Origin: a virus
Taxonomy: Duplodnaviria; Heunggongvirae; Uroviricota; Caudoviricetes
Length of the DNA: 26,408 bases
Reading direction: 5' to 3' (one strand)
IMG/VR virus record: IMGVR_UViG_2690316273_000020
Shown: positions 8,821 to 26,408 of the stretch, one piece after another
Position numbering within the stretch: the stretch's first letter is position 1
Layout: each line of letters opens with the position of its first letter
Position numbers and translations under genes: made by a program
The notes under the pieces: generated by a model
Seen by the model: only the letters and a program-made list of their open reading frames with translations
The model's database searches: none
Told to the model about the DNA's origin: nothing

Positions 8821-8829
8821 GTTGTCCCC

Positions 8830-10002: not shown

Positions 10003-10078
10003 AGTGGCGAACCTCCTGATTGGATTAGGCTTCGCCCTATGTTGAAGTGATTGTGCCTGACAAACAGCTAAGCGCAGT

Positions 10079-10096
10079 TGTACCGTTATTCACACA
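10079..10096. promoter_or_regulatory. Candidate Ogr-dependent late promoter element (P_F-like): TGT-N12-ACA dyad
   Basis: tgtaccgttattcacaca is centred 85 nt upstream of the FI start codon. P2 late promoters carry a TGT-N12-ACA dyad around -55. Confidence 0.45.
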
Positions 10097-10144
10097 AAAT
10101 GACGGTATTTGTCTGCTTGCAGGGATAATCAAAATAATGCTGAT

Positions 10145-10711: not shown

Positions 10712-10766
10712 GATCATCTCCTTGAATAAAAATCGGGGATGATGCCAGTTAGTCGTAATCGCTGCA

Positions 10767-10792
10767 TTTTCTTATACGTTGGTTTGGGAGAA
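10767..10792. repeat. Invertase crossover site (gix/hix-like), proximal to the invertase gene
   Basis: ttttcttatacgttggtttgggagaa is the reverse complement of 12625-12650 at 23 of 26 positions; half-site TTCTCCCAAACC resembles Gin/Hin half-sites. Confidence 0.65.
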
Positions 10793-11137
10793 GCGGCGAA
10801 AAGGGATGTGGGCACAGGAGATAATCAGATACCGGATATGGGAGCATTCGCTTCTGGTTCGGGATGGTTCAGGCTACCAGGTGGATATATTGTTCAGTTT
10901 GGCACTTTTTCAGGAAACACGACCCGCTTTATCAGTGGACACTTCCCTATACCATTCCCTAATCAGCCGATGGTTTCAGTCAGTGTTATGTCTGATGCCG
11001 TTCAGTCAGACCCGTCGAATCCTGCCCCGCAGGTTTTGTCTGTAAATTTTGAACATATCAGTAATTCAGCGTGGCGTGTGGCAACCAGTGATATCTCACA
11101 GCAATACAGATTCAGTTATATTTCGATAGGACGGTAG
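10793..11137 (+). CDS. Alternative tail-fibre C-terminal segment (no own start; fuses to constant H after inversion)
   Basis: The frame is open across the crossover site (..FLYVGLGEAAKRD..), mirroring ..LSYLGLGEGSALP.. at the H crossover. It ends at 11137 and is followed by its own tfa gene. Confidence 0.6.
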   Translation, partial: AAKRDVGTGDNQIPDMGAFASGSGWFRLPGGYIVQFGTFSGNTTRFISGHFPIPFPNQPMVSVSVMSDAVQSDPSNPAPQVLSVNFEHISNSAWRVATSDISQQYRFSYISIGR

Positions 11138-11139
11138 AA

Positions 11140-11580
11140 ATGCAGAAATATATTTTCAGTGCCGATAAAAATGCGTTTTTCCCTGTGGAGCTTAAAATCG
11201 CTTATCAGGAATCCGGCGAATGGCCCGGTGATGGAATCGAAATTGACGACACTGTTGCCGCCGAATTTATGAAGGAAGCACCAGAAGGAAAATACAGAGG
11301 TGTCATCGACGGAATGCCTGCATGGATTGATATTCCACCGCCAACTCATGAGGAACAAATTGCCGCAGCCGAACTGGAAAAGCAGCAATTGATTAATCAG
11401 GTCAACGAATACACACACAGTAAGCAATGGCCTGGTAAAGCGGCGATTGGTCGCCTGAAAGGTGAGGAACTGGCGCAATATAATTTGTGGCTGGATTATC
11501 TGGACGCACTGGAACTGGTCGATACTTCCAGTGCGCCAGATATTGAATGGCCTACGCCTCCGTCAGTTCAGGCCAGATGA
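11140..11580 (+). CDS. Alternative tail-fibre assembly chaperone (Tfa/U'-like)
   Basis: 146-aa ORF whose C-terminus (LDYLDALELVDTSSAPDIEWP) parallels that of G (LDYIDAVTATDTSTAPDVIWP). Convergent with G, overlapping by 29 nt. Confidence 0.75.
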   Translation: MQKYIFSADKNAFFPVELKIAYQESGEWPGDGIEIDDTVAAEFMKEAPEGKYRGVIDGMPAWIDIPPPTHEEQIAAAELEKQQLINQVNEYTHSKQWPGKAAIGRLKGEELAQYNLWLDYLDALELVDTSSAPDIEWPTPPSVQAR

Positions 11581-12157
11581 CATCCGGCGCCGTGCTGGTA
11601 TCTGTTGCCGTCACCGCGTCAATGTAATCCAGCGCAGCGTTAAGTCTGGCGGTTTCTGCCTGCGTCAGATTCCGTCCGGCCTGTAATTTCAGCTGAATCA
11701 GACCAATGGAAGCCATTGCAGCATCAATCAGTGACTGGCGCTGTGCTTCTGCCGCTTCTACTGCGGCGCTATGCTGTGCCTCAGTATCCGCCACCCATTT
11801 TTCACCATTCCATTTATCATATGGCGTTAACGGGGCGATAGTGGTTGTATTTTCAGGGTAATCACCCAGAGCGGTGATTTCTTTTGATTCTCCTGTTTCG
11901 GTGCTATAGACCGTTTCACCGCGATGGTCTGGCACATATTCCCATGAGTTTAAATCTGCCGAACGGCAGATTGCATAACCAGCTTTGTTTGAGCTCGGAG
12001 CATCTAAACAAGAACATACCGGGATACCGACACCGACAGCAAGATGTTCAGTTGATGTGGCAATATATTCCCGTGTTTCGCCATCATAATTATAAACGGT
12101 AACACTCCCCGCCTTTGTAGCAATAAGCTCACTATTTAATACAACTTTATTCATCAT
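11552..12157 (-). CDS. G: Tail-fibre assembly protein G (currently expressed orientation)
   Basis: 201-aa ORF immediately downstream of H with a 4-nt overlap; Tfa-family C-terminal motif. Confidence 0.85.
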   Translation of the reverse strand: MMNKVVLNSELIATKAGSVTVYNYDGETREYIATSTEHLAVGVGIPVCSCLDAPSSNKAGYAICRSADLNSWEYVPDHRGETVYSTETGESKEITALGDYPENTTTIAPLTPYDKWNGEKWVADTEAQHSAAVEAAEAQRQSLIDAAMASIGLIQLKLQAGRNLTQAETARLNAALDYIDAVTATDTSTAPDVIWPELTEA

Positions 12158-13686
12158 GCTGCCCTTACAATGTAGTTAAACGCGATATTTCTTGGACGGT
12201 TTTCAGATGCAGTTACAACTCCAGGAGCAGCACTGGCATCGAAGTCTATACCTTCAGCAATTTTGTCAGTGGCTGAAGTGTTTGTGACATAAGCACTTTG
12301 AACTCTTGATGCTACTTTAAGAGCACCAGCAGCGAAAGTAATCAAAGCACTGCTCGATCCAGGTCTGATATTAAATCCTCCAGTTATATTTCTTATTGCA
12401 TCCCCTTGAGATGATAACAAATCTCGACCAGCATCCACCCCGCGCCCATCATCCCAGCCGCGAATGAATTCACCGCGTAAATCAGGCAATTTATTTGTTG
12501 GATAAGCCTTTGCCAGTTCCGGGTATTCTTCTGCAGAAAAAGGCGCACCGTTGCATTTCAGCCAGCCTGTTGGCGGTGTGGCTGAAGGCCATGGAACAGG
12601 CACACCAACGGGTAATGCCGAACCTTCTCCCAAACCAAGGTATGAGAGAAGACCAGCGACATCCTTTCCACTCAAATTAGTCAGCGTATTGTCCAGCGGT
12701 TGTTTACCTGCCAGCGCATTAAGCATTGTCGTGGCAAAGTTCGGATCATTCCCCAGTGCCGCCGCCAGTTCGCTCAGTGTATCCAGTGCAGCAGGTGCAG
12801 ACCCCACCATTGCTGCAATTGCCGATTTCACAAAAGCCGTGGTGGCAATCTGTGTATTGTTAACCGACTGTGCGGCAGTGGGGGCTGTTGGCGTTCCGGT
12901 GAGTGCCGGACTTGACAGCGGCGCTTTCAGTGCCAGCGCATTGTTAATGGTGGTACTGAATTTCGGATCATTGTTAATGGCTGCGGCTAATTCTTTCAGC
13001 GTGTCCAGCGTGGCTGGCGCACCATTAATCAGGGCCGTCAGTGCCGCCTGAACAAACGCGGTGGTCGCAACCTGCGTGGTGTTATTCCCTGCCGCTGGCG
13101 TTGGCGCTTTTGGTGTCCCGGTAAACGTCGGACTTTCTTTCTGTGCATACTGTGAATGCGGGTCCGGTGCGGCAAGATGTTTTGCCATCTGATCATCCAC
13201 GTACACCTTCAGCTCCAGTACCTTGTCATCCACATACTTGCGGGTTGCCAGCACTACGGCAGGGTCGATTTTCAGGGTGATATTGTCCGTGCTGCTGGTA
13301 ATCAGCACCATGCGCACGGTCTGGGTACGCCCGCTGCCTTCAGCCAGTTGCGGTTTATAGCTTTCCGGGCAGTTCCCCACGGCAATCAATGCCCCTGACT
13401 CATCAAACAGGCCCACTTCACGTATCCACCAACCGCCCTCGTTTTCAGGGATCACCTGTTCAGCAATAATCTGGCTGCTGTTCTGCGGGTCGATATAGAG
13501 CATATTCAGCGCAGCCCGGCGTTTCTCATTTACCAGTGCCGTCTGCTTTGCGTCCGGCGTCGGCAATGCTCCGCCGCCATCGCCCACCGCCATATGGGTA
13601 ATTTTTAGCGGCACACCGAGCGCGGCGGCGCTGGCAAGTTTCGCCGCGCCAATATCCGTCAGCAGGGTATAAAATTTTGTGCTCAT
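12154..13686 (-). CDS. H: Tail fibre protein H (constant N-terminal part plus currently joined variable C-terminus)
   Basis: 510-aa ORF after I; the crossover site lies inside it at about codon 345, so the last about 165 aa sit within the invertible segment. Confidence 0.9.
   Translation of the reverse strand: MSTKFYTLLTDIGAAKLASAAALGVPLKITHMAVGDGGGALPTPDAKQTALVNEKRRAALNMLYIDPQNSSQIIAEQVIPENEGGWWIREVGLFDESGALIAVGNCPESYKPQLAEGSGRTQTVRMVLITSSTDNITLKIDPAVVLATRKYVDDKVLELKVYVDDQMAKHLAAPDPHSQYAQKESPTFTGTPKAPTPAAGNNTTQVATTAFVQAALTALINGAPATLDTLKELAAAINNDPKFSTTINNALALKAPLSSPALTGTPTAPTAAQSVNNTQIATTAFVKSAIAAMVGSAPAALDTLSELAAALGNDPNFATTMLNALAGKQPLDNTLTNLSGKDVAGLLSYLGLGEGSALPVGVPVPWPSATPPTGWLKCNGAPFSAEEYPELAKAYPTNKLPDLRGEFIRGWDDGRGVDAGRDLLSSQGDAIRNITGGFNIRPGSSSALITFAAGALKVASRVQSAYVTNTSATDKIAEGIDFDASAAPGVVTASENRPRNIAFNYIVRAA
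12625..12650. repeat. Invertase crossover site (gix/hix-like) inside H
   Basis: ttctcccaaaccaaggtatgagagaa is an inverted copy of 10767-10792 (23/26); it encodes LSYLGLGE in the H frame. Confidence 0.65.
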
Positions 13687-14288
13687 GGATTCACTCTCAT
13701 TGTGTCAATAACATGGACCGCCCCGCCTTCATGCGCGGTGCCACCGGAAATAATCGTTTCGTTGATATACGGATAGATCGTGATTTCTTCGCCAAGATAG
13801 CTGGCGGCTCCCACCCAATGCGGGCCGCTGGTCTGCAGATTGATGGACATGCCGATCATGTGGCGGCTACATGGTTTGGCATCGCTTATCAGTCGCTCAA
13901 GTTCCAGATAGGTATCTTCAGTGATGCCCTGGTCCTGCACGCCGATATCCAGGCGAAACGTGCCCGGTGCCTCTCCGGTTTGCCACCACTCAATAATGCG
14001 GATCAGAAAGCCGAACGGCTCCACCACCCGCCGCACGGCACTGGTGGTCCCTTTATGCTGATGAATATAAAAAGCATCCTTCACCACCTGGCGCTTGACG
14101 CTTTCTGTCCAGCCCTCGTCCCAGCGATCCACAGAGAACGCCCAGGCGAGATAAGGCAGGAAACTGACCGGACAGGTTGCCGGATTCCACAAGTCACGAA
14201 GCGGCACCTGCAGATCAGAAATCCCGCTGCAGGTTTGCGCCAGTCGGCGCTCCAGTGGTGTTGAACCCGGTGGCAGCAGACTATTCAT
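13683..14288 (-). CDS. I: Baseplate protein I
   Basis: 201-aa ORF with the gpI-like block RDLWNPATCP..LPYLAWAFSVDRWDE; 4-nt overlap with H. Confidence 0.85.
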   Translation of the reverse strand: MNSLLPPGSTPLERRLAQTCSGISDLQVPLRDLWNPATCPVSFLPYLAWAFSVDRWDEGWTESVKRQVVKDAFYIHQHKGTTSAVRRVVEPFGFLIRIIEWWQTGEAPGTFRLDIGVQDQGITEDTYLELERLISDAKPCSRHMIGMSINLQTSGPHWVGAASYLGEEITIYPYINETIISGGTAHEGGAVHVIDTMRVNP

Positions 14289-15189
14289 CCGTTCCTCCGT
14301 TGGTTACGCTCCACTGCGTACATGATGCCGCCTGTGCTTTGTTCAGGACCACATCCGCCAGAGGAGAAGCCAGCTCCACACGCTGCACACCCTCAACATG
14401 CAGGGCGGCAAAGATGGCGCTACGGCGAATATCCCGACCAAGACGCGTCTGACTGGCGATGTACTTCTGCAGGCTGGCTTTTGCCGCTGCCATTACCGGC
14501 TCTGCTTCCGGTCCCGGATAGAGAAAAATGGTGGCTTCCACGCGATACGGGATGATTTCTGCGCTGCGAACCGTAAGACGGTCAGCCACCGGGCGGACGT
14601 TCTCACTGTTCAGAGCTTTTTCCACCACGTCCAGCAGGTCTTTTTCTGCAGTTCCATCGCCTTCGCGGCTAAGGACTGTCAGCACCACCTCTGCAGGTGC
14701 CGGGCTGGTTGCACTGGCATCCGCCACCCGACCGTCGGCGCTTCGGGCATGAAATTCATAAGCTGCAGTTGGCCCCGCAACTGAAAGCCCTTCAAAGGCT
14801 GCAGGCACACGCAGGCGTAACGCTTCATCGCTTTCCATCACAGCTGCAACGGGCGGCACAGCGTCATTATCAGCAGGCGTCACCGTCAGGCGTTTCACGT
14901 TGTAGTTGGCAGCGAGCTGGTCAAGATCGCTGCCCATCGCGTAAGCCACCATCACAGCCTGCGCGGCTTCGTTAATGCGCTGGCGCAGAAGCAACTCACG
15001 GTAAGCGTTCTCCTGCAGCAATTTGGTGACGGGTTCAGATTCCAGTTTCAGCGTGCGGATCACTGCTTCCTGCTCATCTTTCGGATGAAGCGCAACAAAT
15101 TCGGCCTTGCGTTCGGCAAGCAGCGTCTCAAAGTCCGGCACATCCACAATCTGCGGCGCAGGCAACTGCGAAAGGTCAATCACTGCCAT
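14281..15189 (-). CDS. J: Baseplate assembly protein J
   Basis: gpJ-like. Start placed at MAVIDLSQLP (ATG 15187-15189) with AGGAG upstream; the ORF-track start at 15228 is likely upstream read-through. Confidence 0.85.
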   Translation of the reverse strand: MAVIDLSQLPAPQIVDVPDFETLLAERKAEFVALHPKDEQEAVIRTLKLESEPVTKLLQENAYRELLLRQRINEAAQAVMVAYAMGSDLDQLAANYNVKRLTVTPADNDAVPPVAAVMESDEALRLRVPAAFEGLSVAGPTAAYEFHARSADGRVADASATSPAPAEVVLTVLSREGDGTAEKDLLDVVEKALNSENVRPVADRLTVRSAEIIPYRVEATIFLYPGPEAEPVMAAAKASLQKYIASQTRLGRDIRRSAIFAALHVEGVQRVELASPLADVVLNKAQAASCTQWSVTNGGTDE

Positions 15190-15535
15190 TCTCTGCTCCT
15201 GTTGATACGGAAAGGGAAACAGGCACACCGTTATTACGCCGCCCGCTCAGCGCCACCACCATTGAACCGTCAAAATTGCTGTTGATGGTGATGGAATCCA
15301 GCGTCATCCGTGGCTCCCAGCGACTCAGCGCCACATACACTGCCGACATGACCTGCAGGCGTAATGCCGGATTTTGTGGCTGGTCTATCAGTGCCGACAG
15401 CAGGGAACCATATTCACGGCGAGCAATGCGGCTACCCTGCGGCGTCAGCAGAATGTCCCGCACCGACTGGCGCAGATGGTCAATATCAGTAATGGCTTTA
15501 CCGCTGGTATTGTTCATCCCGCTATAAAGCGTCAT
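15176..15535 (-). CDS. W: Baseplate wedge protein W
   Basis: 119-aa ORF between V and J; gpW-like. Confidence 0.85.
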   Translation of the reverse strand: MTLYSGMNNTSGKAITDIDHLRQSVRDILLTPQGSRIARREYGSLLSALIDQPQNPALRLQVMSAVYVALSRWEPRMTLDSITINSNFDGSMVVALSGRRNNGVPVSLSVSTGAENGSD

Positions 15536-16110
15536 ACCGGGCCTCCGGTTGTATCGCCGCCTTTCAGGACGCCAGTATGCTGATGCGCATCAACCACGAT
15601 CCCGTTAGAACTCATCGCTCCGCCGCCCTGGGTAACGCCACCATTGATCACCACTTCGCTGTTAATGCGCGTGCGGTCAGCCTCCAGTACAAACTCACTG
15701 GTTTTCATGGTGATGTTGTCAGCGGCCTCAATGACCATTGATTTGATGCCCCTGACATACCAGCGCCCGGTGGCGGGTTCATATTCAAACCAGCCACCGT
15801 CAGGATGTTCTGTCACGCAGGCGTCCGCCGACGTCGACGGTGGTGCGAACTGATTCGAATAGACAGCGGGCAGCGCAAAGGCAGTCTCCAGATTGCCGCC
15901 CAGACTCAGCAGCACCACCTGCTCACCTTCTGATGGTTTCCACCATGTGCGGGCATTACCCGCGCGCAGCGTCAGCCAGTTAATCCAGTTAGTTTCAAGG
16001 TCGCCCGTTTTCACCCGGCAAAGCCAGTTTGTCCTGTCCACTTCGGTGACTACCCCAGTGCGGATCAGGTTGGTGATAAGGCGCATGATTTCGGTTAATT
16101 GTGCGTTCAT
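15532..16110 (-). CDS. V: Baseplate spike protein V
   Basis: 192-aa ORF with an N-terminus resembling P2 gpV (MN...IRTG); 4-nt overlap with W. Confidence 0.85.
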   Translation of the reverse strand: MNAQLTEIMRLITNLIRTGVVTEVDRTNWLCRVKTGDLETNWINWLTLRAGNARTWWKPSEGEQVVLLSLGGNLETAFALPAVYSNQFAPPSTSADACVTEHPDGGWFEYEPATGRWYVRGIKSMVIEAADNITMKTSEFVLEADRTRINSEVVINGGVTQGGGAMSSNGIVVDAHQHTGVLKGGDTTGGPV

Positions 16111-16156
16111 AGGGAAAGGTTGCCATCAGGGGAAGAAAGGCGGCAGTGCTGCAACT

Positions 16157-16174
16157 TGTATCAGTGCTGATACA
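16157..16174. promoter_or_regulatory. Candidate Ogr-dependent late promoter element (P_V-like): TGT-N12-ACA within a perfect 9-2-9 palindrome
   Basis: ttgtatcagtgctgatacaa (16156-16175) lies in the S-V intergenic gap, centred 55 nt upstream of the V ATG. No U-tract follows on either strand, so it is not a terminator. Confidence 0.4.
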
Positions 16175-16178
16175 AAAA

Positions 16179-16625
16179 TCACCCCGCCAGCCATTGCAGA
16201 ATCATGTCGCGGGTCATTGCCTCAACATCATCATTTACACCCAGAAGGCGACGCTCTGCGTAACGGACCTCCGGTCCTTTGCGGCTGACGCGATCACGTA
16301 AGCCGTAGTGATGAACACGGGCAATGCGCTGTACCTTGCCTTCAAACTGCACGCTGGCAGAGTCGGCGCTGGCGGCAGTTTTCAGGTATTTTGTGGTGCG
16401 CAGCTTTGTAAACATCTGACGTTTGATGCGCCCCTTTTTGCTGCGTGCTGTTACCCTGCGCGGCTCATAACTGCTGCCATCAGGATTGCGCTGCATCCTG
16501 ATGTTCTGCTGCTGTGTCCGGCGCAGTTCCTGCGCCAGCTGGCGCATCATGCGGCTTCTTGCGGCTGGCTCCAGATTCGCCAATAATGCACTCAGCCAGT
16601 TGTCCACCTTCTGCAGTTCAGCCAC
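16179..16625 (-). CDS. S: Tail completion protein S
   Basis: 148-aa ORF; gpS-like; 8-nt overlap with R. Confidence 0.85.
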   Translation of the reverse strand: MAELQKVDNWLSALLANLEPAARSRMMRQLAQELRRTQQQNIRMQRNPDGSSYEPRRVTARSKKGRIKRQMFTKLRTTKYLKTAASADSASVQFEGKVQRIARVHHYGLRDRVSRKGPEVRYAERRLLGVNDDVEAMTRDMILQWLAG

Positions 16626-17049
16626 GTTTCACCGTCCACATTTCTTCAGGTTCATCAGGTTCCGCTACCGCTTCAACGTTCGACACACTGCCGTCAGTGC
16701 TGACTAGCACACGCTCCGTCAGTTGCAGGTTAAGGCTGATATCACAGACATCGTTGCGCAGAATATCCACCTCAAAGGTGAATAGCTTTTCCCGTAACGC
16801 CGGGTTATTGATGGCATCGGGCTGGTTATCCCGCAGCCACAGCAAAACCGGGGCCATCAGCAGATTCTGGTCGCCGCTGAAATCCTCAATCACCACGTTC
16901 AGGGTGTAGCGGTACTCCCATGACATGGAGCTGGCCCCCGTGGCAACCAGCGAACCGTTATCCACAAACAGATGCAGTTTGTCCGGGTTATTGCGGACAT
17001 AAGGCACCGCTTTATTGAGGGCGTGGCGCAGGGATTGTGGTTTGTTCAC
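16618..17049 (-). CDS. R: Tail completion protein R
   Basis: gpR-like. A GTG start at 17047-17049 (NKPQSLRHAL, compare P2 MLKPDSLRRAL) with AGGAG upstream is likely; the ORF track extends to 17070. Confidence 0.8.
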   Translation of the reverse strand: MNKPQSLRHALNKAVPYVRNNPDKLHLFVDNGSLVATGASSMSWEYRYTLNVVIEDFSGDQNLLMAPVLLWLRDNQPDAINNPALREKLFTFEVDILRNDVCDISLNLQLTERVLVSTDGSVSNVEAVAEPDEPEEMWTVKRG

Positions 17050-17302
17050 TGTTTCGCTCCTGACACGCAATAATCATGTCCACTTTGTCTGCACAGACCG
17101 CCCAGGCGGCCTCCGTTTCATCCAGCAATGCGTTCAGATCACCGTTAGTGCGCGGCGCTGTCTGATCCAGCCGACACGGCGTCACTCGCGGACAACCACT
17201 GACGGTAAGCTGCACCTCCGGTGAGTGCCGGACGTTCCCGCAGCCGGATAATGTCAGCAGGCAAAGGAGTATCAGCCCAGCGGCGTAAATCCTCGTTCTC
17301 AC
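17012..17302 (-). CDS. lysC: LysC, Rz1-like outer-membrane lipoprotein spanin
   Basis: 96-aa ORF in an alternate frame, starting inside lysB and running into R; signal peptide with lipobox LTLSGC. Confidence 0.7.
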   Translation of the reverse strand: MRTRIYAAGLILLCLLTLSGCGNVRHSPEVQLTVSGCPRVTPCRLDQTAPRTNGDLNALLDETEAAWAVCADKVDMIIACQERNSEQTTIPAPRPQ

Positions 17303-17573
17303 GTTTCAGTTCCTCGATCCGGCGTTGTCGTTGTCTCAGCTGTGCGCTGGTCTGTTCTGCTTCGGCATAGAGCCGCGCCTGCTCCCGGTTATTGGTTTCA
17401 GTCAGAATGGACAGGCTGATAAGCTGGCTGTTGCTCTTTGCCAGTGCCTGGCTTTTGCTCTGCAGCTCGTTTGCCTGCGTGCTGATGGTCTGGCTGGCAT
17501 CAGCCAGCCGCCACGTCTGCCAGCCCAGCGCCGCCAGTAATAACGCCAGCACAACCAGCAGCAACCGGTTCAT
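17145..17573 (-). CDS. lysB: LysB, Rz-like inner-membrane spanin
   Basis: 142 aa with an N-terminal TM helix (LLLVVLALLLAALGW) and a coiled-coil-rich periplasmic part; contains lysC. Confidence 0.8.
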   Translation of the reverse strand: MNRLLLVVLALLLAALGWQTWRLADASQTISTQANELQSKSQALAKSNSQLISLSILTETNNREQARLYAEAEQTSAQLRQRQRRIEELKRENEDLRRWADTPLPADIIRLRERPALTGGAAYRQWLSASDAVSAGSDSAAH

Positions 17574-17947
17574 GCTGCTACCTGTTGCGCCATCTGATTA
17601 CGGGTGATCCAGAAGGCAATAACGGTCAGCAGATAAAAGACCAGGGTAATAGCCCACCCCGTCCATGCGAGACTTACAACAATCAGCAATCGCATCACCC
17701 AACAGATAAATACATTTTCTTTTCGGGTAATTGTCTTCAGCAAAGATGTCCTTAACTCCTGCCAGAGCGGGCCATTCTGAATTAACGCAGCCAGTGCTAC
17801 CGGAATTACCGCCCATGTCAGCAAACAGGCTACCCAAACGCCGGACGCTGCCAGTACCGGAAAGATCCCCTGCGGATACACCATTGCTGCGATTAACAGC
17901 GCCATCCATAACATCAGAAACAGTCCGCTGATTAATTTCTTTTTCAT
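17570..17947 (-). CDS. lysA: LysA, multi-TM lysis-timing protein
   Basis: Start chosen at MKKKLISGLF (17947), directly after the K stop; about 4 predicted TM helices; position as in P2. Confidence 0.7.
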   Translation of the reverse strand: MKKKLISGLFLMLWMALLIAAMVYPQGIFPVLAASGVWVACLLTWAVIPVALAALIQNGPLWQELRTSLLKTITRKENVFICWVMRLLIVVSLAWTGWAITLVFYLLTVIAFWITRNQMAQQVAA

Positions 17948-17948
17948 T

Positions 17949-18461
17949 TCAGTTTGCTCCCTGTAAACACCAGGCCATCTCCCGCGCACGGCGGTTATCC
18001 AGCCCCTGATTAAACACACCTTTTACATAAACCCAGCGCGGCAACTGTCGGCACGCATCCGCCCAGCGCCGCTGATTGAGCAATTTCACCAGCGTGGAAC
18101 TACAGGCATTGCCCGTCCCCACGTTGAAGGCAAACGACACCGTAGCGTCATACACCTTCTGTGGTGGCTGTTGCTTCACACACCTTTCCAGTGCCCGCTC
18201 CACACGCAGCACGTTGGAGATCAGCCCTTCTGCTGCCTGTCGTTCCGTGATTGTTTTGCCGGGAATGACGCCCGACGTATTACCAATGCCGTCGGTCCAG
18301 ACACCCGCGCTGCACTGATACGGCTGCAGACGACAACCTTCGTAATCGGCAATCAGTTTCAGCCCTTCCACGGAGGTGTGAAGCTGCTGAAAACCCGGCA
18401 GCGTGGCAGCAATAGCCAGCACGGCCCCGACAAGGCAGCGTTTAACGATTGATGGATTCAT
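17949..18461 (-). CDS. K: Endolysin K, SAR-type lysozyme (P1 Lyz / P21 R21-like)
   Basis: N-terminal weakly hydrophobic Gly/Ala-rich SAR segment (CLVGAVLAIAATLPGF); Cys9, Glu41, Cys43, Cys50, Thr56 arranged as I recall for P1 Lyz; C-terminal blocks resemble R21 (FNVGTGN..STL, RQLPRW). Confidence 0.85.
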   Translation of the reverse strand: MNPSIVKRCLVGAVLAIAATLPGFQQLHTSVEGLKLIADYEGCRLQPYQCSAGVWTDGIGNTSGVIPGKTITERQAAEGLISNVLRVERALERCVKQQPPQKVYDATVSFAFNVGTGNACSSTLVKLLNQRRWADACRQLPRWVYVKGVFNQGLDNRRAREMAWCLQGAN

Positions 18462-18657
18462 AGTCCTCCCGCGAGATCTGCCCGTCGCGCAGAAGCTGGT
18501 AGGCTTTGTGTTTGTAGTACCAGTTGATAGCCAGCATCAGCACACCAATCATCAGGCCGCCCAGCGTTGAGGCATCCTTGATGGACAAATCGCCCAGCCA
18601 GGCCAGCACAACGGCGATGCAGTACGTGATAAAGGCGCTGATTCGCTCAAGCGTCAT
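18442..18657 (-). CDS. Y: Holin Y (two predicted TM domains; possibly a pinholin)
   Basis: 71-aa ORF with two hydrophobic segments and a charged C-terminus, immediately upstream of and overlapping K. Confidence 0.65.
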   Translation of the reverse strand: MTLERISAFITYCIAVVLAWLGDLSIKDASTLGGLMIGVLMLAINWYYKHKAYQLLRDGQISREDYESINR

Positions 18658-18660
18658 AAT

Positions 18661-18864
18661 TCAGTCCCATAGCTGGACGGTCTGCACGGTGGTGGTGGCC
18701 GGAATGTCCGGCAGCTCCACCTGCAGCCCGTGAGGTAAAAAGGGGCCATATTCGGCAAGCCCCGGATTTGCCTTCAGTACCTGCTCCGTGACACCCTGCG
18801 TGCGCCCGTAATGACGCCAGCAAAGCGCGTCCACCGTGTCATACTGATGCGCACGCACTTTCAT
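18661..18864 (-). CDS. X: Tail protein X
   Basis: 67-aa ORF between L and Y, the same length as P2 gpX. Confidence 0.8.
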   Translation of the reverse strand: MKVRAHQYDTVDALCWRHYGRTQGVTEQVLKANPGLAEYGPFLPHGLQVELPDIPATTTVQTVQLWD

Positions 18865-19391
18865 CAGATAAGCTCCACTGTACAGTGCGGCGCATCCTGC
18901 ACCCGGCTGATGGCCCAGCGGGCGTCACGCCACAAATCACCGCTGGATTCCGCCAGTTCCTCGCCTCGCTTCACACCGGATGCCGTGGCGTCATAGTCCT
19001 GGTATCGTTCGTTGAGCATGGCGCGTGCCCAGCAGTAAACCGCGTTGAAATAGTGCTGAATGCGCTCACTTTTCCCGTCCAGCTGTTCTGCCGGAACCTC
19101 TGCCAGCGAGGCATACCCCAGCATCTGCTGGCGTCTGCGAAACTCATACAGCTCTGCGTTGACCTCCGAAATTGCCGACAGCGCAACCTGCTTTAAACGC
19201 GGCTGCGTCACCGTGCCGTCAGTGCGCATCACGCTGCGAAACTCCGACAGGTCCACATCAGGCCAGAACGGTGTATTTCTGATGATTTCCGCCTGTTCCG
19301 GTGCCTGTTCTGGCGCAACAAACTTCATGCTGCTTTCTCCTGAAATAGAGGGCGGTGGACGGAGTTTTGATGTGGCTGTGCCTTTCGCCAC
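18864..19391 (-). CDS. L: Head completion / stabilisation protein L
   Basis: 175-aa ORF downstream of M; gpL-like (IRNTPFWPDVDL). Confidence 0.8.
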   Translation of the reverse strand: MAKGTATSKLRPPPSISGESSMKFVAPEQAPEQAEIIRNTPFWPDVDLSEFRSVMRTDGTVTQPRLKQVALSAISEVNAELYEFRRRQQMLGYASLAEVPAEQLDGKSERIQHYFNAVYCWARAMLNERYQDYDATASGVKRGEELAESSGDLWRDARWAISRVQDAPHCTVELI

Positions 19392-19423
19392 CCCGTGCCG
19401 CCCGTGCGCGGGGGCACGTTCTG

Positions 19424-20074
19424 TCAGCGGCTGTCATTGCGCAGTCTGCGCTCCAGCTGCTGTTTGTCTTTTTTCACGCCACAGCGGGGATCGAGCTGCA
19501 ACGCATGGTTGAGATGGTTAAGGGCGGAAGCCGGATTGCTTTCACTCAGGACAGCGCCAATCGCTTTATGCAGACGCGCCCGTGACTGGTCCGGCATATC
19601 CAGACCGTCTGTCAGCTCCAGCGTCTGCAGCAACAGATCGGCATCAAAGCCGGTGGCGGCAAGCATTGCGCTCTGCGCCGCGTCTGCCATTTCCTCTGCC
19701 AGCACGGTCTGCACATTGCGGTTACCCAGTGGCATCACCCAGCCATGACGCAGGGCATGACATCCGATCTCCAGCGCCCCGGCATAATCTCCGGCATCAA
19801 TGCGCCACAGCATCACGTACATCAGCACGTCATCCTGTTGAGTGCCTCCGGCAGCCAGGACGCCCTCTGCCCAGGCGGCGTACTTCGGCAGCAGCTCCAC
19901 CTTGATTTCCGCTTTTTTGACCGTGGACTGAACACCCTTGAGACGGCGGCGGTCTTCCGCCAGTTGCAGCAGCATCAGGTCATAGCCCGACGCGTGGAGA
20001 ACACTGCCGCCCTCGCGGGCGGCCTGTTCAGCCTGAACGCGCAGGCGATGCTGCCGTGCGGGACTCAGGCTCAT
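19424..20074 (-). CDS. M: Terminase endonuclease (small) subunit M
   Basis: 216-aa ORF directly after N; gpM-like. Confidence 0.85.
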   Translation of the reverse strand: MSLSPARQHRLRVQAEQAAREGGSVLHASGYDLMLLQLAEDRRRLKGVQSTVKKAEIKVELLPKYAAWAEGVLAAGGTQQDDVLMYVMLWRIDAGDYAGALEIGCHALRHGWVMPLGNRNVQTVLAEEMADAAQSAMLAATGFDADLLLQTLELTDGLDMPDQSRARLHKAIGAVLSESNPASALNHLNHALQLDPRCGVKKDKQQLERRLRNDSR

Positions 20075-20077
20075 GGA

Positions 20078-21136
20078 TTACGCTCCGGTTTCTGCTGCGG
20101 CGGCGCTGAAGTCGCCAATCTGGATGTTTTCCACAAGTGCGGCACAGCGGTAGTCCTCAACCACATAGGCTTCGTTAACGGATTCAAAGTTTTCAATCCG
20201 GTCACGTTTCGGGTTGTCGATAACTGAACGGCGGCGGGTGTCTTCCTGCCAGTAGATGGACAGGTTATCCAGACGGGTGATCAGCAGTGCATTCGGCGGG
20301 AAGAACGGTGCACGCACGGCCTGCAGGCCACCCATGCGTTTCTGACTGATGATCATATCGGCAGCCAGTTTTTCACTGTTTTCCTGCTCTTTGTTAACCA
20401 GCGGGAAATACTTGTCAGACAGCAGTTCACGCCCGCAAATCACCACCAGATCGTCATCGTCCTGGTAGACCACGTCGATAAGCTCATTGACGGCATCCAT
20501 CACCACGGCGTCCAGGTTGGCATATTCGCCACCTTTACCGACTTTCACCGCGCCCGGTGTGGTTTCACCGCCCATGGTGGTGCTGCCCATGACGTGATCC
20601 GGTGCATCCTCACGGATTTTCTGCAGCCAGCCTTTGTTCACATCCTGCAGCAGCGGGTTTTCGCTGCGGTTGGAGGTTTTCGCACGCTTCACGCCGTTAA
20701 AGCCGATCATGATGCGGTCCAGTGCCTGACGTTTCACGATGGCGTCACGGATACGCACCTGGAAATCCTGAAACTTCGCCCACAGGTCCAGCTTCGCGTA
20801 GGTCAGTACCGTGTCAAAGTTGGTCTGCTCGCATTTGTATTCCACATCGACCATCAGCGTAGGATCGACAGGTTCACGCTCTTTCGCGGTGGTGTCAGTG
20901 GTTCCGGCAATGGTGCTACCAACACCCAACCCCAGCAGCTGACCGGACTGCTCAGTCACTGGCGTGACGTTAATCAGCGTCAGGAAAGCGGCGGACTGCT
21001 GGATCTGGTCTTCCAGCGTCTGCTGTACAGACGGCTCCACGGTGAACTTGCTGGACAGTTCTTCAACTGCCACACCGTTCAGACGCGCCAGCTGCTGCAG
21101 GTAAGCGTTAAAAGCAAAGCGGGTATTCTTCTTCAC
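20078..21136 (-). CDS. N: Major capsid protein N
   Basis: 352-aa ORF with strong similarity to remembered P2 gpN (TRFAFNAYL..FTVEPSVQQ..). Confidence 0.9.
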   Translation of the reverse strand: MKKNTRFAFNAYLQQLARLNGVAVEELSSKFTVEPSVQQTLEDQIQQSAAFLTLINVTPVTEQSGQLLGLGVGSTIAGTTDTTAKEREPVDPTLMVDVEYKCEQTNFDTVLTYAKLDLWAKFQDFQVRIRDAIVKRQALDRIMIGFNGVKRAKTSNRSENPLLQDVNKGWLQKIREDAPDHVMGSTTMGGETTPGAVKVGKGGEYANLDAVVMDAVNELIDVVYQDDDDLVVICGRELLSDKYFPLVNKEQENSEKLAADMIISQKRMGGLQAVRAPFFPPNALLITRLDNLSIYWQEDTRRRSVIDNPKRDRIENFESVNEAYVVEDYRCAALVENIQIGDFSAAAAETGA

Positions 21137-21152
21137 CAGGTTTTGTGCTCCA

Positions 21153-21986
21153 TCAGCAATTGGTCAGAGTGTCAGCGGGGGCGTTACCGCCTGTTGCACG
21201 CTGGCGGTAGTCCTGGCGGCTGTCTTCATGACTCAGCTTATTCACCAGTTCGTTAAAGGCGGTCTGCTGTGCCTGCAGGGCAGTCTCCAGCTCAGACAGA
21301 CGTTCTTCCTGCTCAGACAGGGATTTTTCGGTGCGTGCGCTCAGGTTTTGCTGCTCAGTGGCGACCAACTCCACGGCCTTATGCACATCAGAGAACCGGG
21401 CATCGTCGGACTGCTCTTTTTTGGTGAACAGTGCCGTGACGCGGGCAAACAGGGACGGCTTGTCCTCCTGGATTTCTTCCAGTTCGATCACCGTTTCCTC
21501 TGCGGCGGTAAAGAGATTGGCGGGATTCTGCTTGCGGTTTGCCAGCGGGTTATGGGCTGCACTGGCGCTGAATGTCAGCATTTCAGTGCCCAGACTGGCA
21601 GGGTCATCAGTGGCAGCCAGGCCGACCAGGTAGGCTTTGCCCGTATCAGCAAACTTCGGACTGACTTCCATAGATGTGAATAATTTCTGGCCTTTTTTCA
21701 CCAGTTCCACCAGGGATTCCGTTGGCTCAACGTCGGCATACAGCGCCATCTTGCCTGCCAACGGACCTTCCGTGATTTCTTCAGCAAACAGCGCCGTCAC
21801 CTTGCCGTAGCGGTTAAAGGTGCTGTCCGGCAGATAAGACTTGATGTGCTCAAGGTTAATCAGCGCGGTATACACCGCCGGGTTGTAGCTGGCTGCCATC
21901 TGTTCCAGCCATTCACGCTGGATTTCGCGTCCGTCGGTGGTGGCACCTTCCACCCCGATGCGAAAACGCTTTGCTTTCACTGTCAT
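21153..21986 (-). CDS. O: Capsid scaffolding protein O
   Basis: 277-aa ORF, gpO-like (FRIGVEGATTDGR, YLVGLAATDDPASLGTE). Confidence 0.9.
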   Translation of the reverse strand: MTVKAKRFRIGVEGATTDGREIQREWLEQMAASYNPAVYTALINLEHIKSYLPDSTFNRYGKVTALFAEEITEGPLAGKMALYADVEPTESLVELVKKGQKLFTSMEVSPKFADTGKAYLVGLAATDDPASLGTEMLTFSASAAHNPLANRKQNPANLFTAAEETVIELEEIQEDKPSLFARVTALFTKKEQSDDARFSDVHKAVELVATEQQNLSARTEKSLSEQEERLSELETALQAQQTAFNELVNKLSHEDSRQDYRQRATGGNAPADTLTNC

Positions 21987-22128: not shown

Positions 22129-23895
22129 ATGAACACCACACTGACACCCGCAGATCTCGATCCCCGTCGGCAGGCCATGCTGCTGTACTTTCAGGGATAC
22201 CGCGTCGCCCGCATTGCTGAAATGCTGGGCGAGAAAGTTGCAACTGTTCACAGCTGGAAAAAACGCGACAAGTGGGGTGACTATGGGCCGCTGGATCAGA
22301 TGCAGCTCACCACCGCCGCACGCTACTGCCAGCTCATTATGAAGGAGCACAAAGAAGGGAAAGATTTCAAAGAGATTGACCTGCTGGCGCGCCAGTCGGA
22401 GCGCCACGCGCGGATCGGCAAGTTTAACAATGGCGGCAACGAAGCCGATTTAAACCCTAACGTCGCCAACCGCAACAAAGGCCCACGCCGTCAGCCGGAA
22501 AAGAATGTTTTCACCGATGAACAGATTGAGAAGCTGGAAGAAATCTTCCATTCCTCCATGTTCAACTACCAGCGCCACTGGTGGGAAGCCGGAAAAACCA
22601 ACCGCATCCGCAACCTGCTGAAGTCACGCCAGATCGGCGCAACCTTCTATTTTGCCCGTGAAGCCCTGATTGACGCCCTGCTGACCGGACGTAACCAGAT
22701 TTTCCTTTCCGCCAGCAAGGCACAGGCCCACGTCTTTAAGCAGTACATCTTCGACTTCGCCAAAGAAGTGGAGGTGGAGCTGAAAGGTGATCCGATGGTG
22801 CTTCCTAACGGTGCCACGCTTTACTTCCTCGGCACCAATGCCCGCACTGCCCAGAGTTATCACGGCAACCTGTATCTGGATGAATATTTCTGGATACCGA
22901 AATTTCAGGAGCTGCGTAAAGTGGCTTCCGGTATGGCTATTCACAAAAAATGGCGACAAACCTATTTTTCCACGCCATCAAGCCTGACCCACAGTGCTTA
23001 TCCGTTCTGGTCCGGTGCGCTGTTCAACCGTGGACGCAACAAAGCCGACAAGGTGGACATCGACCTGTCCCACAGCAATCTGGCCCCCGGCCTGCTGTGC
23101 GCAGACGGGCAATACCGCCAGATAGTCACCGTGGAAGATGCGGTGCGCGGCGGCTGCAACCTGTTCGACCTTGACCAGTTGCGCATGGAGTACAGCCCGG
23201 ACGAATACCAGAACCTGCTGATGTGCGAGTTTGTGGACGATCTCGCGTCCGTGTTTCCGCTCAGCGAGCTGCAGGCGTGCATGGTGGACAGTTGGGAAGT
23301 CTGGACCGACTTTCATGCACTGGCCCTTCGCCCGTTTGGGTGGCGCGAAGTGTGGATCGGTTATGACCCGGCAAAAGGTACGCAGAACGGCGACAGCGCC
23401 GGATGCGTGGTGGTGGCACCGCCAGCCGTGCCGGGCGGTAAGTTCCGTATTCTTGAGCGCCACCAGTGGCGCGGGATGGACTTCCGCGCCCAGGCGGACG
23501 CCATCAAAAAACTGACCGAACAGTACAACGTGACATATATCGGCATCGACTCGACGGGTGTCGGTCACGGGGTTTACGAGAACGTGAAAGCGTTTTTTCC
23601 TGCCGTCCGGGAGTTTGTCTACAACCCCAACGTTAAAAATGCCCTGGTACTCAAGGCATACGACATTATCAGCCACCGCCGTCTGGAGTTTGACGCCGGG
23701 CACACCGACATTGCGCAGTCATTCATGGCAATCCGTCGCGCCACCACCGCCAGTGGCAACCGCCCGACCTATGAAGCCAGCCGCAGCGAAGAAGCCAGCC
23801 ACGCCGATCTGGCCTGGGCAACGATGCACGCACTGTTTAATGAACCGCTGCAGGGCGAGTCCGCCAATACAAGCAATATTGTGGAGATTTTTTGA
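22129..23895 (+). CDS. P: Terminase large (ATPase) subunit P
   Basis: 588-aa ORF transcribed divergently from O; gpP-like with an N-terminal HTH-like segment. Confidence 0.9.
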   Translation: MNTTLTPADLDPRRQAMLLYFQGYRVARIAEMLGEKVATVHSWKKRDKWGDYGPLDQMQLTTAARYCQLIMKEHKEGKDFKEIDLLARQSERHARIGKFNNGGNEADLNPNVANRNKGPRRQPEKNVFTDEQIEKLEEIFHSSMFNYQRHWWEAGKTNRIRNLLKSRQIGATFYFAREALIDALLTGRNQIFLSASKAQAHVFKQYIFDFAKEVEVELKGDPMVLPNGATLYFLGTNARTAQSYHGNLYLDEYFWIPKFQELRKVASGMAIHKKWRQTYFSTPSSLTHSAYPFWSGALFNRGRNKADKVDIDLSHSNLAPGLLCADGQYRQIVTVEDAVRGGCNLFDLDQLRMEYSPDEYQNLLMCEFVDDLASVFPLSELQACMVDSWEVWTDFHALALRPFGWREVWIGYDPAKGTQNGDSAGCVVVAPPAVPGGKFRILERHQWRGMDFRAQADAIKKLTEQYNVTYIGIDSTGVGHGVYENVKAFFPAVREFVYNPNVKNALVLKAYDIISHRRLEFDAGHTDIAQSFMAIRRATTASGNRPTYEASRSEEASHADLAWATMHALFNEPLQGESANTSNIVEIF

Positions 23896-24941
23896 TGGGA
23901 AAGAGTAAGAAAAACCGCGCTGCGGCGATGAATCACATCCAGCATAAAAGCCAGACTTCAGCCGAAGCATTCAGCTTCGGCGATCCCGTTCCTGTTCTGG
24001 ACCGCCGAGAATTACTGGACTATGTGGAATGCGTACAGATGGACCGTTGGTATGAGCCGCCCGTCAGCTTTGACGGACTGGCGCGCACCTTCCGCGCCGC
24101 CGTGCATCACAGTTCCCCGATTGCAGTAAAGTGCAACATTCTGACCAGTACCTATATCCCTCATCCGCTGCTCAGCCAGCAGGCTTTTTCGCGTTTTGTG
24201 CAGGACTATCTGGTATTTGGTAACGCCTACCTGGAGAAACGCACGAACCGCTTCGGTGAAGTTATCGCCCTTGAACCGACCCTGGCAAAATACACCCGAC
24301 GCGGATTAGACCTGGATACCTACTGGTTTGTGCAATACGGCATGACTACGCAGCCGTATCAGTTCACGAAAGGCAGCATTTTTCATCTGATGGAACCGGA
24401 CATCAACCAGGAGATCTACGGCCTGCCCGGTTATCTTTCTGCCATTCCGTCAGCCCTGCTCAACGAGTCCGCCACGCTGTTCCGCCGCAAGTATTACATT
24501 AACGGCAGTCATGCAGGCTTCATCATGTACATGACCGATGCAGCGCAGAACCAGGAGGATGTGAACAACCTCCGCAATGCGATGAAAAGCGCCAAAGGTC
24601 CTGGTAACTTCCGTAACCTGTTTATGTACTCGCCTAACGGTAAAAAGGACGGGCTTCAGATTATCCCGTTGTCAGAAGTGGCGGCGAAGGATGAGTTCCT
24701 GAATATCAAGAACGTGAGCCGGGACGACATGATGGCGGCGCATCGTGTGCCGCCACAAATGATGGGGATAATGCCTAATAATGTCGGGGGGTTTGGGGAT
24801 GTAGAAAAGGCAAGCCGTGTCTTTGTCCGCAACGAGTTGATACCTCTGCAGAAACGCCTACAGGAACTTAACAACTGGCTGGGCGATGAAGTTATACGTT
24901 TCGAGCCGTACACTTTAGATATTCAGAATGAAAAGAAATAA
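23892..24941 (+). CDS. Q: Portal protein Q
   Basis: 349-aa ORF overlapping the P stop by 4 nt; gpQ-like. Confidence 0.9.
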   Translation: MMGKSKKNRAAAMNHIQHKSQTSAEAFSFGDPVPVLDRRELLDYVECVQMDRWYEPPVSFDGLARTFRAAVHHSSPIAVKCNILTSTYIPHPLLSQQAFSRFVQDYLVFGNAYLEKRTNRFGEVIALEPTLAKYTRRGLDLDTYWFVQYGMTTQPYQFTKGSIFHLMEPDINQEIYGLPGYLSAIPSALLNESATLFRRKYYINGSHAGFIMYMTDAAQNQEDVNNLRNAMKSAKGPGNFRNLFMYSPNGKKDGLQIIPLSEVAAKDEFLNIKNVSRDDMMAAHRVPPQMMGIMPNNVGGFGDVEKASRVFVRNELIPLQKRLQELNNWLGDEVIRFEPYTLDIQNEKK

Positions 24942-24995: not shown

Positions 24996-25265
24996 TTACC
25001 AATTTCTTTTTTCGGAGTTTAGCCAATCACCGCATGGATAATATCTTGACGCCCATTCACCTTGTAAACGAGCTACAAACAGAATATCGTTACTATCGAC
25101 CCTGGCTTGGAGTCCGTCACGCAGTTGAGTTGCGGTCAGCGTTGTATCTACTAACCAAAATGATTCAAGATATTTACAGTATGTAAATTGCTTTAGATAG
25201 TCAAAAACTTCATCGTAGTTTCTTCCCGGAGCCTTCAAGTCATAGGTTATACAATAAATAGCCAT
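24996..25265 (-). CDS. Hypothetical protein (89 aa), AT-rich cargo between Q and cos
   Basis: ATG start with GGAG 8 nt upstream; alternating hydrophobic pattern (IYCITYDL, NYDEVFDYLKQF, WLVDT, ILFVARL) suggests a small alpha/beta fold. No family recognised. Confidence 0.5.
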   Translation of the reverse strand: MAIYCITYDLKAPGRNYDEVFDYLKQFTYCKYLESFWLVDTTLTATQLRDGLQARVDSNDILFVARLQGEWASRYYPCGDWLNSEKRNW

Positions 25266-25268: not shown

Positions 25269-25451
25269 CTAAGCTCCGCATTTTTTATCATTTGGGGAAC
25301 ATCTTAACCTGCGACATTTGCGGCAATACGATTGAGGGATCAGCCGCTCTCCTTCCATAGTTCTAAAACCAAACACTTCTTCAATTTTGTTCAAATCACC
25401 ACTTGCAATAACCCCACAGCAGGGGCAGACAGCCTCAATTTGAAATGCCAT
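25269..25451 (-). CDS. Hypothetical Cys-rich small protein (about 60 aa; possible zinc ribbon)
   Basis: Start MAFQIEAVCPCCG.. has GGAG 6 nt upstream; the ORF-track version begins with TTG at 25514. Cys cluster CPCC ... CRKCRRLRC; basic C-terminus. Confidence 0.45.
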   Translation of the reverse strand: MAFQIEAVCPCCGVIASGDLNKIEEVFGFRTMEGERLIPQSYCRKCRRLRCSPNDKKCGA

Positions 25452-25550
25452 GTCTATCTCCATTCCACATGTTGAATGTAGGGTAATACTTCCTTTCAAG
25501 CAAAAATGAGACAAGGATCTTGAAACCTAATTTAAACTTGCTTGCGCGCG

Positions 25551-25569
25551 CTCGTATCCCCGCCACGCC
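25551..25569. other. cos-like site (P2-family 19-nt cohesive-end sequence)
   Basis: The minus strand reads GGCGTGGCGGGGATACGAG; the first 13 nt match the remembered P2/186 cos ends (GGCG[A/T]GGCGGGGAAAGCA..). It is a GC-rich island in AT-rich DNA about 610 bp from the Q stop. Confidence 0.45.
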
Positions 25570-25618
25570 TGCCCGCTTTATGTAGTAGTTTTCATGCAGG
25601 TGCATGATCTACGCGAAA

Positions 25619-25638
25619 GCCCGCCAGTTCTGGCGGGC
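25619..25638 (-). terminator. Possible weak intrinsic terminator for the large cargo ORF
   Basis: 8-bp GC stem gcccgcca/tggcgggc followed on the minus strand by UUUCGCGU. Confidence 0.3.
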
Positions 25639-25685
25639 CCTAGCAAAACGATCCTCAAACGATCATGCGATCTCATGCAGCATAG

Positions 25686-26408
25686 TCATGCACGATCATT
25701 TGACTCAGCATCTGCTGCACGCTTGCTGCGCGAAGATGCACTTTTACTATCAATCTTTCGACAGTTCTTTCTATCCCTGGCTTCATTTTCTTTAAATTTG
25801 TTATATGTCTCAGTATCAAAAAACGAAATTGTTTCAACCTCATCTTTTGGTATGAGCACACGGAAATCTTCGATATTAAGCCGAGACATTCCACTTATCA
25901 CACCACTATCAAGATAATGTTGGTGATAGTTAGTCGTGATACTAATCGTTAGATCATCTTTATCCCGATATCCGCTTAACATCGGGAGAAGTTCAAGGTG
26001 CTCTGAAAGCCCGTTTTCTAACGCCGGACAAGTAACAAAACCAACATAGATTTTGCGAGACGACAGAGTTGCTATGATCGGAAACTGTCTTGCGGACGCT
26101 TCCATGAGTAATGATTCGAAAGCGTTATTACCCACAGCTTTAGCTAAGGCATCCCAGCGACGATCTCCACGTGATGTGCGTAACTTATTTCCAAAACCTG
26201 AAATCGCAGCGAGGACAATTGAAATCATAACCCATGCTATCTGTTTGATTTCATTTATTCTTTGAAGTTTGTCTTTCGATGAAGACAACATGCCATTAAA
26301 ACTGTCAGGTGTTAGATTCAAGGCATTAGCCAGCCAACGAAACCCTCCGCTGACGTTCAAAATAAAGGTGAAAAAACCGCTGTCACGAACGGTGCAATAG
26401 TGATCCAC
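25686..26408 (-). CDS. Hypothetical protein, 5'-truncated by the window edge (at least 240 aa visible), cargo in the old/tin-equivalent position
   Basis: Long ORF in AT-rich DNA running off the window; one predicted TM helix (IAWVMISIVLAAISGFG); low-complexity basic/acidic C-terminal tail. No motif I recognise. Confidence 0.6.
   Translation of the reverse strand: MDHYCTVRDSGFFTFILNVSGGFRWLANALNLTPDSFNGMLSSSKDKLQRINEIKQIAWVMISIVLAAISGFGNKLRTSRGDRRWDALAKAVGNNAFESLLMEASARQFPIIATLSSRKIYVGFVTCPALENGLSEHLELLPMLSGYRDKDDLTISITTNYHQHYLDSGVISGMSRLNIEDFRVLIPKDEVETISFFDTETYNKFKENEARDRKNCRKIDSKSASSRSKRAADAESNDRA

Follow-up and report, generated by a model that had tools for sequence, protein, structure and literature searches.

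An IS100-split cargo gene in the gpA/cos/gpQ hotspot of a P2-like prophage and the intact two-gene membrane-protein cassette to which it belongs

Introduction

In P2-like phages, the region from gpA to gpQ has been validated as a hotspot of anti-phage systems (Rousset et al. 2022, PMC9122126). In the prophage described here, an AT-rich gene lies beside cos, on the side where P2 itself carries old and tin, and its sequence recalls neither of them. This raises the question of what such a gene encodes, whether the copy found here can still work, and whether its family takes part in excluding other phages. Location alone is weak evidence for defence, since about a quarter of P2 hotspots hold non-defence cargo, such as partition systems, and about 2% hold a toxin (PMC9122126). 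In a 2026 study of the hotspots of P4, six of eight loci without a known function, chosen at random, were protective (PMC13586616).

The DNA analysed, referred to below as the window, is a stretch of 26,408 nt (IMG/VR virus record IMGVR_UViG_2690316273_000020). The original prediction, made from its letters, placed an unrecognised cargo gene of at least 240 codons at 25570-26408, with its N-terminus beyond the window and possibly with further genes of the same system to the right.

Prophage layout and the cos region

The window holds a P2-like prophage within an E. coli-type chromosomal segment, where it follows the host genes ybjM and ybjL in reverse orientation. Since these host genes flank the prophage end beside ogr, the attachment site lies within about 2620-2856. 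The main features outside the cargo gene are as follows.

288-2620: host genes ybjM and ybjL, adjoining the prophage end beside ogr
2856-3107: ogr, a P2-like prophage gene
Minus strand: tail, baseplate, lysis and head genes of the P2-like prophage
22129-23895, plus strand: terminase P
23892-24941, plus strand: portal Q
24996-25265 and 25269-25451, minus strand: two small ORFs between Q and cos
25542-25693: conserved cos-flanking block, common to P2-like phages regardless of their cargo
25551-25569: cos, 19-nt cohesive end, reverse complement GGCGTGGCGGGGATACGAG

The cos 19-mer aligns with the annotated cosR of P2, GGCGAGGCGGGGAAAGCAC, and the cargo ORF therefore does lie to the right of cos, on the old/tin side, as had been proposed. 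By megablast, the block around cos is 92-95% identical to Fels-2 and to P2-like phages of E. coli and Klebsiella, in that stretch only, and identity with locus L001 (NZ_CP016404), which carries an intact copy of the cargo gene, begins at 25542. Variable sequence begins at about 25694, which places the stop of the cargo gene and its last two to three codons inside the conserved block. The predicted interval must accordingly be trimmed: it is cargo from about 25694 onwards, while 25570-25693 belongs to the cos-flanking block.

The same block contains a GC-rich hairpin (GCCCGCC-AGTTCT-GGCGGGC, 25619-25638), 48 nt 3' of the cargo-gene stop on the minus strand. It was not called by the terminator scan because only three T residues follow it, and it may be a packaging signal and not a site of transcription termination.

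A second cargo pair lies on the other side of cos, between Q and cos (24996-25265 and 25269-25451, both minus strand, GC 0.41). One of its products, of 89 aa, belongs to phrog_1090 and weakly matches a Cas2-like PADLOC model (Cas2b, E 5e-4); the other, of 60 aa, carries the Cys pairs CPCC and CRKC, is zinc-ribbon-like and belongs to phrog_19700. The left pair and the right cargo gene occur together in none of 5,426 complete E. coli genomes (megablast).

The tail-fibre region has a feature of its own at 10145-12157, whose make-up suggests an invertible segment for host range, of the Mu G or P1 C type. It comprises a Hin/Cin-type serine invertase gene (10145-10717; Resolvase and HTH_7), an adjoining alternative tail-fibre C-terminus (10739-11137, Gp53-like_C) and tail-fibre assembly genes in opposite orientations (11140-11580, plus strand; 11552-12157, minus strand), with a local dip in GC to 0.45-0.48.

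A genuine cargo gene, interrupted by IS100

The minus-strand ORF is real. Its stop lies at 25686-25688, its frame is open to the last base of the window, and the fragment differs from the intact protein WP_021556032.1 by a single residue change, L164F. It is also as AT-rich as had been noted, with a GC content of 0.412 over 25686-26380 (GC3 0.35) against 0.55 for the structural genes at 3165-21986; only two of 515 sliding 695-nt windows are equally low. What did not survive is the length of at least 240 codons with an N-terminus beyond the window, as the window holds 230 genuine codons (51-280) and its last 28 nt belong to an insertion sequence.

25686-26380, minus strand: 3' part of the cargo gene, running from two bases of codon 50 through codons 51-280 to the stop
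26381-26408, plus strand: first 28 nt of the left terminal inverted repeat of IS100 (IS21 family), inside cargo codon 50

The last 28 nt of the window are TGTCACGAACGGTGCAATAGTGATCCAC, so that the window ends within IS100; these 28 nt of the left end are all of IS100 that it contains, and istA/istB and the right junction lie outside. Several comparisons agree on this junction. The best megablast matches among the 5,426 complete E. coli genomes, with up to 99.8% identity, all end at 26380, and the alignment with NZ_CP016404 shows perfect identity up to that base and complete divergence beyond it. Matches over 30/30 positions to a 30-nt query that covers the 28-nt IS end number 9,230, spread over the chromosomes and plasmids of 3,986 E. 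coli genomes. Two independent insertions (loci L002 and L003), which interrupt a tape-measure gene and a restriction endonuclease gene, carry this end too, with istA/istB 60 nt further on; RefSeq names these elements IS21-like element IS100. At its other end, the L002 element carries the corresponding inverted repeat, and the target is duplicated over 5 bp. The insertion point lies inside codon 50 (G/GC) of the 280-codon gene, and the first nine codons of the ORF as originally read (VDHYCTVRD) are thus IS sequence read in frame.

It is very improbable that the gene is intact, with its N-terminus merely past the window edge. The frame is indeed open to the last base of the window, but chance alone would leave nine codons free of stops in about two cases out of three, and the final 28 nt match the IS100 terminal repeat exactly and bear no relation to the intact gene at that position. 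An ORF that stays open to the edge of a window or contig can mark an IS junction and not a longer gene. The window end, just inside a multi-copy IS, appears to resemble a short-read contig break.

TM1 and most of TM2 are missing from the window copy. Because the insertion in codon 50 separates them, together with the promoter and the partner gene described below, from the rest of the gene, this copy is probably dead and most likely represents a non-functional pseudogene. The broken allele is exceptional, given that all 52 complete E. coli genomes with the cassette have it in intact form; an exact search of the GTDB species-representative genomes with a 50-mer spanning the gene/IS100 junction gave no match. 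The inactivation also makes this prophage the wrong copy for cloning.

At the junction, a hybrid sigma-70-like promoter can be drawn at 26386-26359 (minus strand), with GTGACA from the IS100 tip, a 16-nt spacer and TATTTT from the gene, aimed into the remnant, and the number of promoter-like sites in the 26359-26386 region equals the chance expectation. The first in-frame Met after it corresponds to residue 80 of the intact protein; a product starting there would retain TM3 and the Sm-like domain.

The intact two-gene cassette

In locus L001, the intact gene occupies 8146-8988 (minus strand, 843 nt) and encodes a 280-aa 'hypothetical protein', WP_021556032.1. A partner gene, 8988-9203 (216 nt), lies directly upstream and encodes the 71-aa protein WP_000094764.1; in E. 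coli the stop of this gene (TAA) and the start of the large one (ATG) overlap as TAATG. In the genome of this strain, E. coli 210221272, the cassette occupies NZ_CP016404 1602627-1603684. Further upstream in L001 are a DinI-like gene, a small hypothetical gene and replication gene A. The suggestion that a multi-gene system continues to the right is therefore borne out for intact loci, where a gene for 55-72 aa directly precedes the large one, but not for the window copy, whose partner, if present, would lie beyond the IS.

The intact cassette was found in 52 of the 5,426 complete E. coli genomes (about 1%), in 50 of them at 99% identity or more. Among sequenced phages it is carried only by the P2-like Klebsiella phage ST15-OXA48phi14.1, as two hypothetical proteins. 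The small partner gene is syntenic in all six loci checked, and across 40 loci from species-representative genomes a detectably homologous small ORF lies upstream in 28, while most of the remaining, more distant loci have a small ORF with a 'VVGRGT' motif.

The partner is modelled, with modest confidence (pLDDT 67), as a helix, a short hairpin and a long helix. It has no Pfam domain and no match above noise in PADLOC, NCBIfam or PDB sequence searches. The name 'multidrug ABC transporter ATPase', under which NCBI lists it, cannot be right for a protein of 71 aa without a matching domain; this mis-name has been propagated across many NCBI records of the partner (P0205, P0209, P0210 and others).

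Predicted architecture of the large protein

Predictions place the intact large protein in the inner membrane, anchored by three TM helices at its N-terminus, with a C-terminal domain of the Sm/LSm fold in the cytoplasm. In its AF2 model (mean pLDDT 79), TM helices at 2-19, 33-60 and 87-119 are followed by two short helices, a beta-barrel at 151-236 and a long C-terminal helix. The fragment at 25686-26380 encodes the end of TM2, the predicted periplasmic loop, TM3 and the cytoplasmic Sm-like domain. The latter two are placed as follows.

26193-26249, minus strand: TM3, residues 94-112, IKQIAWVMISIVLAAISGF, from hydropathy and the AF2 helix 87-119
25821-26123, minus strand: predicted cytoplasmic Sm/LSm-like domain, residues 136-236, an N-terminal helix and a bent beta-barrel

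TM3 is the helix that had been recognised in the original ORF. Small residues abound in it, and S103 and G111 are conserved in at least 90% of the family. With four basic residues in loop 1 and six past TM3, the charge pattern agrees with an N-out, C-in topology and a cytoplasmic barrel. The family alignment shows a conserved KRSxGWDAYF motif in the first cytoplasmic loop and TM2, and further on TLSSRKxYVG, LPLLSGYRDKDxLT...TNY..HY, DF...IP and SFFD..TY; TLSSRKxYVG and LPxLSGYRDKD are the family motifs carried by the Sm-like domain. Invariant positions include R29, Y36, K159, Y161, G163 and S185-G186-Y187-R188-D189.

The family and its relatives

A word-indexed search gave 57 clusters, nearly all from Gammaproteobacteria, without informative names or a Pfam domain. 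A profile search of 1.84 billion representatives gave 2,879 relatives at E <= 1e-3, and among the 150 relatives listed most are full length, at about 250 aa. Pfam DUF6338 (PF19865) was matched by six of 50 sampled relatives (best E 2.8e-7) and, weakly, by a closer family member (E 0.07), while the window protein and its E. coli orthologues gave no match to the DUF6338 model. On these sequence comparisons, the link between DUF6338 and the cargo protein is transitive only, and the cargo family appears to be a remote branch of a large uncharacterised membrane-protein superfamily that touches DUF6338. The link says nothing about mechanism, because DUF6338 itself is of no known function.

Searches for a name gave little else. 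Pfam, NCBIfam and PDB sequence searches with the fragment and the intact protein returned nothing above noise, and PADLOC-DB v2.0.0 gave no match beyond noise, at E 0.14, for the fragment, the full-length protein or the partner. The Pfam and PADLOC searches that had been suggested as a check thus assign the cargo protein to no named family or defence model. In PHROGs it matches only the unknown-function families phrog_3630 and phrog_9843. In a BFVD fold search, the one full-length match was weak and pointed to an uncharacterised siphovirus protein (E 2.4e-4); the others were short and fell on viral proteins that mostly lack a name. A core phage function such as replication or integration, which would have spoken against cargo, was matched in none of the Pfam, PADLOC, NCBIfam, PDB and PHROGs searches.

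Relation to known systems

P2 Old and Tin occupy the same slot, from gene A to cosR, and like the cargo gene they are accessory, AT-rich and non-essential. They differ in orientation, as the cargo gene is transcribed towards cos and P2 old-tin away from it. A pattern scan of the cargo ORF found no Walker A, HEPN Rx4-6H, YxDD or HNH pattern, in agreement with the original reading. An OLD-family nuclease was rejected, with no GxxxxGK[ST] or TOPRIM motif, no Pfam or PADLOC match and an hhalign probability of 0.2%, and so was a homologue of P2 Tin (NP_046797), for which the family profile reached 0.3%. The gene is variable, horizontally acquired cargo of the gpA-cos-gpQ hotspot, as had been proposed, and is related to neither Old nor Tin (hhalign <1%). 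We conclude that it is a genuine accessory 'moron' gene of this hotspot, previously unannotated here.

The likeness to Sm proteins lies in the fold. In the model, the cargo domain has the N-terminal helix and the strongly bent, five-stranded antiparallel beta-barrel that define the Sm fold, and its pV.ITLkSrKvYVG motif registers with the Sm1 motif of an archaeal Sm protein, at a score that is not significant. Sequence homology with Sm, LSm or Hfq proteins was rejected at hhalign <1% against A. fulgidus Sm1 and E. coli Hfq, and the family members searched gave no LSM/Hfq Pfam match. Sm-like domains typically assemble as six- or seven-membered rings. Unlike Sm, LSm and Hfq proteins, the cargo domain is fused to three TM helices, and the canonical Sm2 'RG' RNA-binding loop was not identified in it.

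The overall layout, three TM helices followed by an Sm-like beta domain, resembles that of MscS, in which it assembles as a heptamer. Homology with MscS was nevertheless rejected (MS_channel PF00924, hhalign 0.2%; no Pfam match in 41 + 50 members).

The closest known systems are catalogued ones. The pair WP_000094764 and WP_021556032 in Table S5A of Rousset et al. is the identical cassette, in the gpA-gpQ hotspot and unbroken by IS100, entered as 'hypothetical + hypothetical' and sometimes beside a SieB-family gene (PMC9122126). Table S5B holds at least two diverged relatives, without Pfam domain or function and flagged '2 TM': system 43, a single protein with 93 occurrences, and system 57, with 75 occurrences (PMC9122126). 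These are diverged members of the superfamily in the gpA-gpQ hotspot, sharing the motifs SRKxY[VI]G / KKTYVG and SGYRDKD, and system 57 likewise has a small 'VVGRG'-type partner ('VEVVGRGAI'). In the accessible part of that source, neither the cassette nor systems 43 and 57 were found among the tested systems (PMC9122126). The systems Bandua, Aernus, Toga, Reve, Crouga and Hailong (PMC13586616) have architectures unrelated to the cassette. Literature searches on the cassette accessions, the phrog ids, DUF6338 in defence and Sm-like anti-phage membrane proteins found nothing relevant.

Mobility and neighbours of the cassette

The cassette is mobile as a unit and turns up in accessory slots of temperate phages unrelated to one another. 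It occupies P2-type hotspots in E. coli and Shewanella, lies between tail genes K and J in a lambda-like prophage of Enterobacter, follows hok/gef in the early region of a lambdoid E. coli prophage, and sits inside the tail module of an Aeromonas siphophage; in all contexts examined, a homologous small gene directly precedes the large one.

The two nearest large ORFs on each side were surveyed with Pfam at 36 loci. The commonest neighbour families were Phage_GPA (11), REP_ORF2-G2P (nine, an overlapping model) and portal (seven), followed by terminase, D12 methylase and integrase, and RelE-family genes were also present. Several loci adjoin known defence genes (PD-Lambda-4_A, bSEFIR, PDC-M55C, PD-Lambda-2_B and PD-Lambda-5_B).

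In Pectobacterium (L004-L006, 5372-6819), a DinI gene, the partner and the 3TM-Sm gene stand together between genes for a mechanosensitive channel and an MFS transporter, and phage genes are absent within 6 kb. The trio may have been left behind by a P2-type hotspot, or may move independently as a three-gene unit.

Proposed function and its alternatives

The best explanation of the locus, which we hold with moderate confidence, is that the window carries a P2-hotspot moron gene split by IS100 and that the intact cassette is a phage-exclusion or abortive-infection membrane module. We infer the anti-phage role from the location. Extrapolating from the fold, the Sm-like domains would form a hexameric or heptameric ring beneath the membrane and thereby bundle 18-21 TM helices into a pore-like assembly reminiscent of MscS. 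Such an assembly might be a gated pore, or a plug at the site of DNA entry, and the small partner might keep it inactive or serve as its sensor. A cue from an infecting phage would then release the assembly, so that the membrane is compromised or DNA entry is blocked.

Three other functions must be weighed against this one. The cassette could be a toxin-antitoxin or prophage-addiction pair, in which the membrane protein is the toxin, the small protein a labile antitoxin, conceivably AbrB/MazE-like, and any anti-phage activity absent or secondary. The gene order, with a small gene first and a larger membrane protein second, tightly coupled by the TAATG overlap, is what such a pair would show; the position directly after the hok/gef toxin gene in one lambdoid prophage, the RelE-family genes among the neighbours and the IS-inactivated copy, which fits a costly gene, point the same way. 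All 52 copies in complete E. coli genomes are intact, so that no recurrent inactivation is visible, and the partner belongs to no recognisable DNA-binding or antitoxin family; abortive infection and toxin-antitoxin functions are, moreover, not mutually exclusive. We consider addiction as the main function unlikely. Much the same weight is given to pure superinfection exclusion, in which DNA entry is blocked at the inner membrane and the host is spared, as with P22 SieA, T4 Imm and HK97 gp15. A predicted inner-membrane protein of temperate phages at moron sites, including tail-gene modules, would suit this role, as would the company of a SieB-family gene in some of the P2 hotspots catalogued in PMC9122126. 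Against it stand the large, highly conserved domain, predicted to be Sm-like and cytoplasmic, and the obligate cytoplasmic partner, and searches of the sequence libraries found no homology to Sie families. Known entry blockers are mostly small membrane proteins without comparable domains, which also counts against this reading.

Less probable still is a lysogenic conversion unrelated to phages, in which a stress-responsive or mechanosensitive-like channel, or an RNA-binding membrane regulator, benefits the host. The 3TM and Sm-like barrel layout recalls the MscS core, the Pectobacterium cassette lies between host genes outside any recognisable prophage, and P2 hotspots do hold non-defence cargo (PMC9122126). 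Yet the protein has no sequence relationship to MscS, the commonest neighbours are phage replication, portal, terminase and integrase genes, and the cassette is patchy, at about 1% of complete E. coli genomes. In our best judgement, abortive infection or exclusion by a membrane assembly therefore ranks above addiction, a pure entry block and a benefit unrelated to phages.

The membrane-module reading can be taken further, to a proposal that we regard as doubtful. The intact cassette would be an unrecognised anti-phage class, a membrane-anchored Sm-like ring that reaches an MscS-like architecture from an unrelated sequence family, gated by its partner and possibly sensing a phage RNA or nucleotide signal, and the DUF6338-related superfamily of about 2,900 clusters would consist of membrane defence effectors.

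Significance

The interest of this locus, which we rate as moderate, rests on the family and not on the window copy, and the cassette has already been catalogued as hypothetical. If the intact cassette excludes phages, a widespread superfamily of DUF6338-linked membrane proteins would gain a function, and an explanation would be at hand for three recurrent P2-hotspot entries now listed as 'hypothetical'. The known effector architectures of bacterial immunity would then include a membrane-tethered Sm-like ring.
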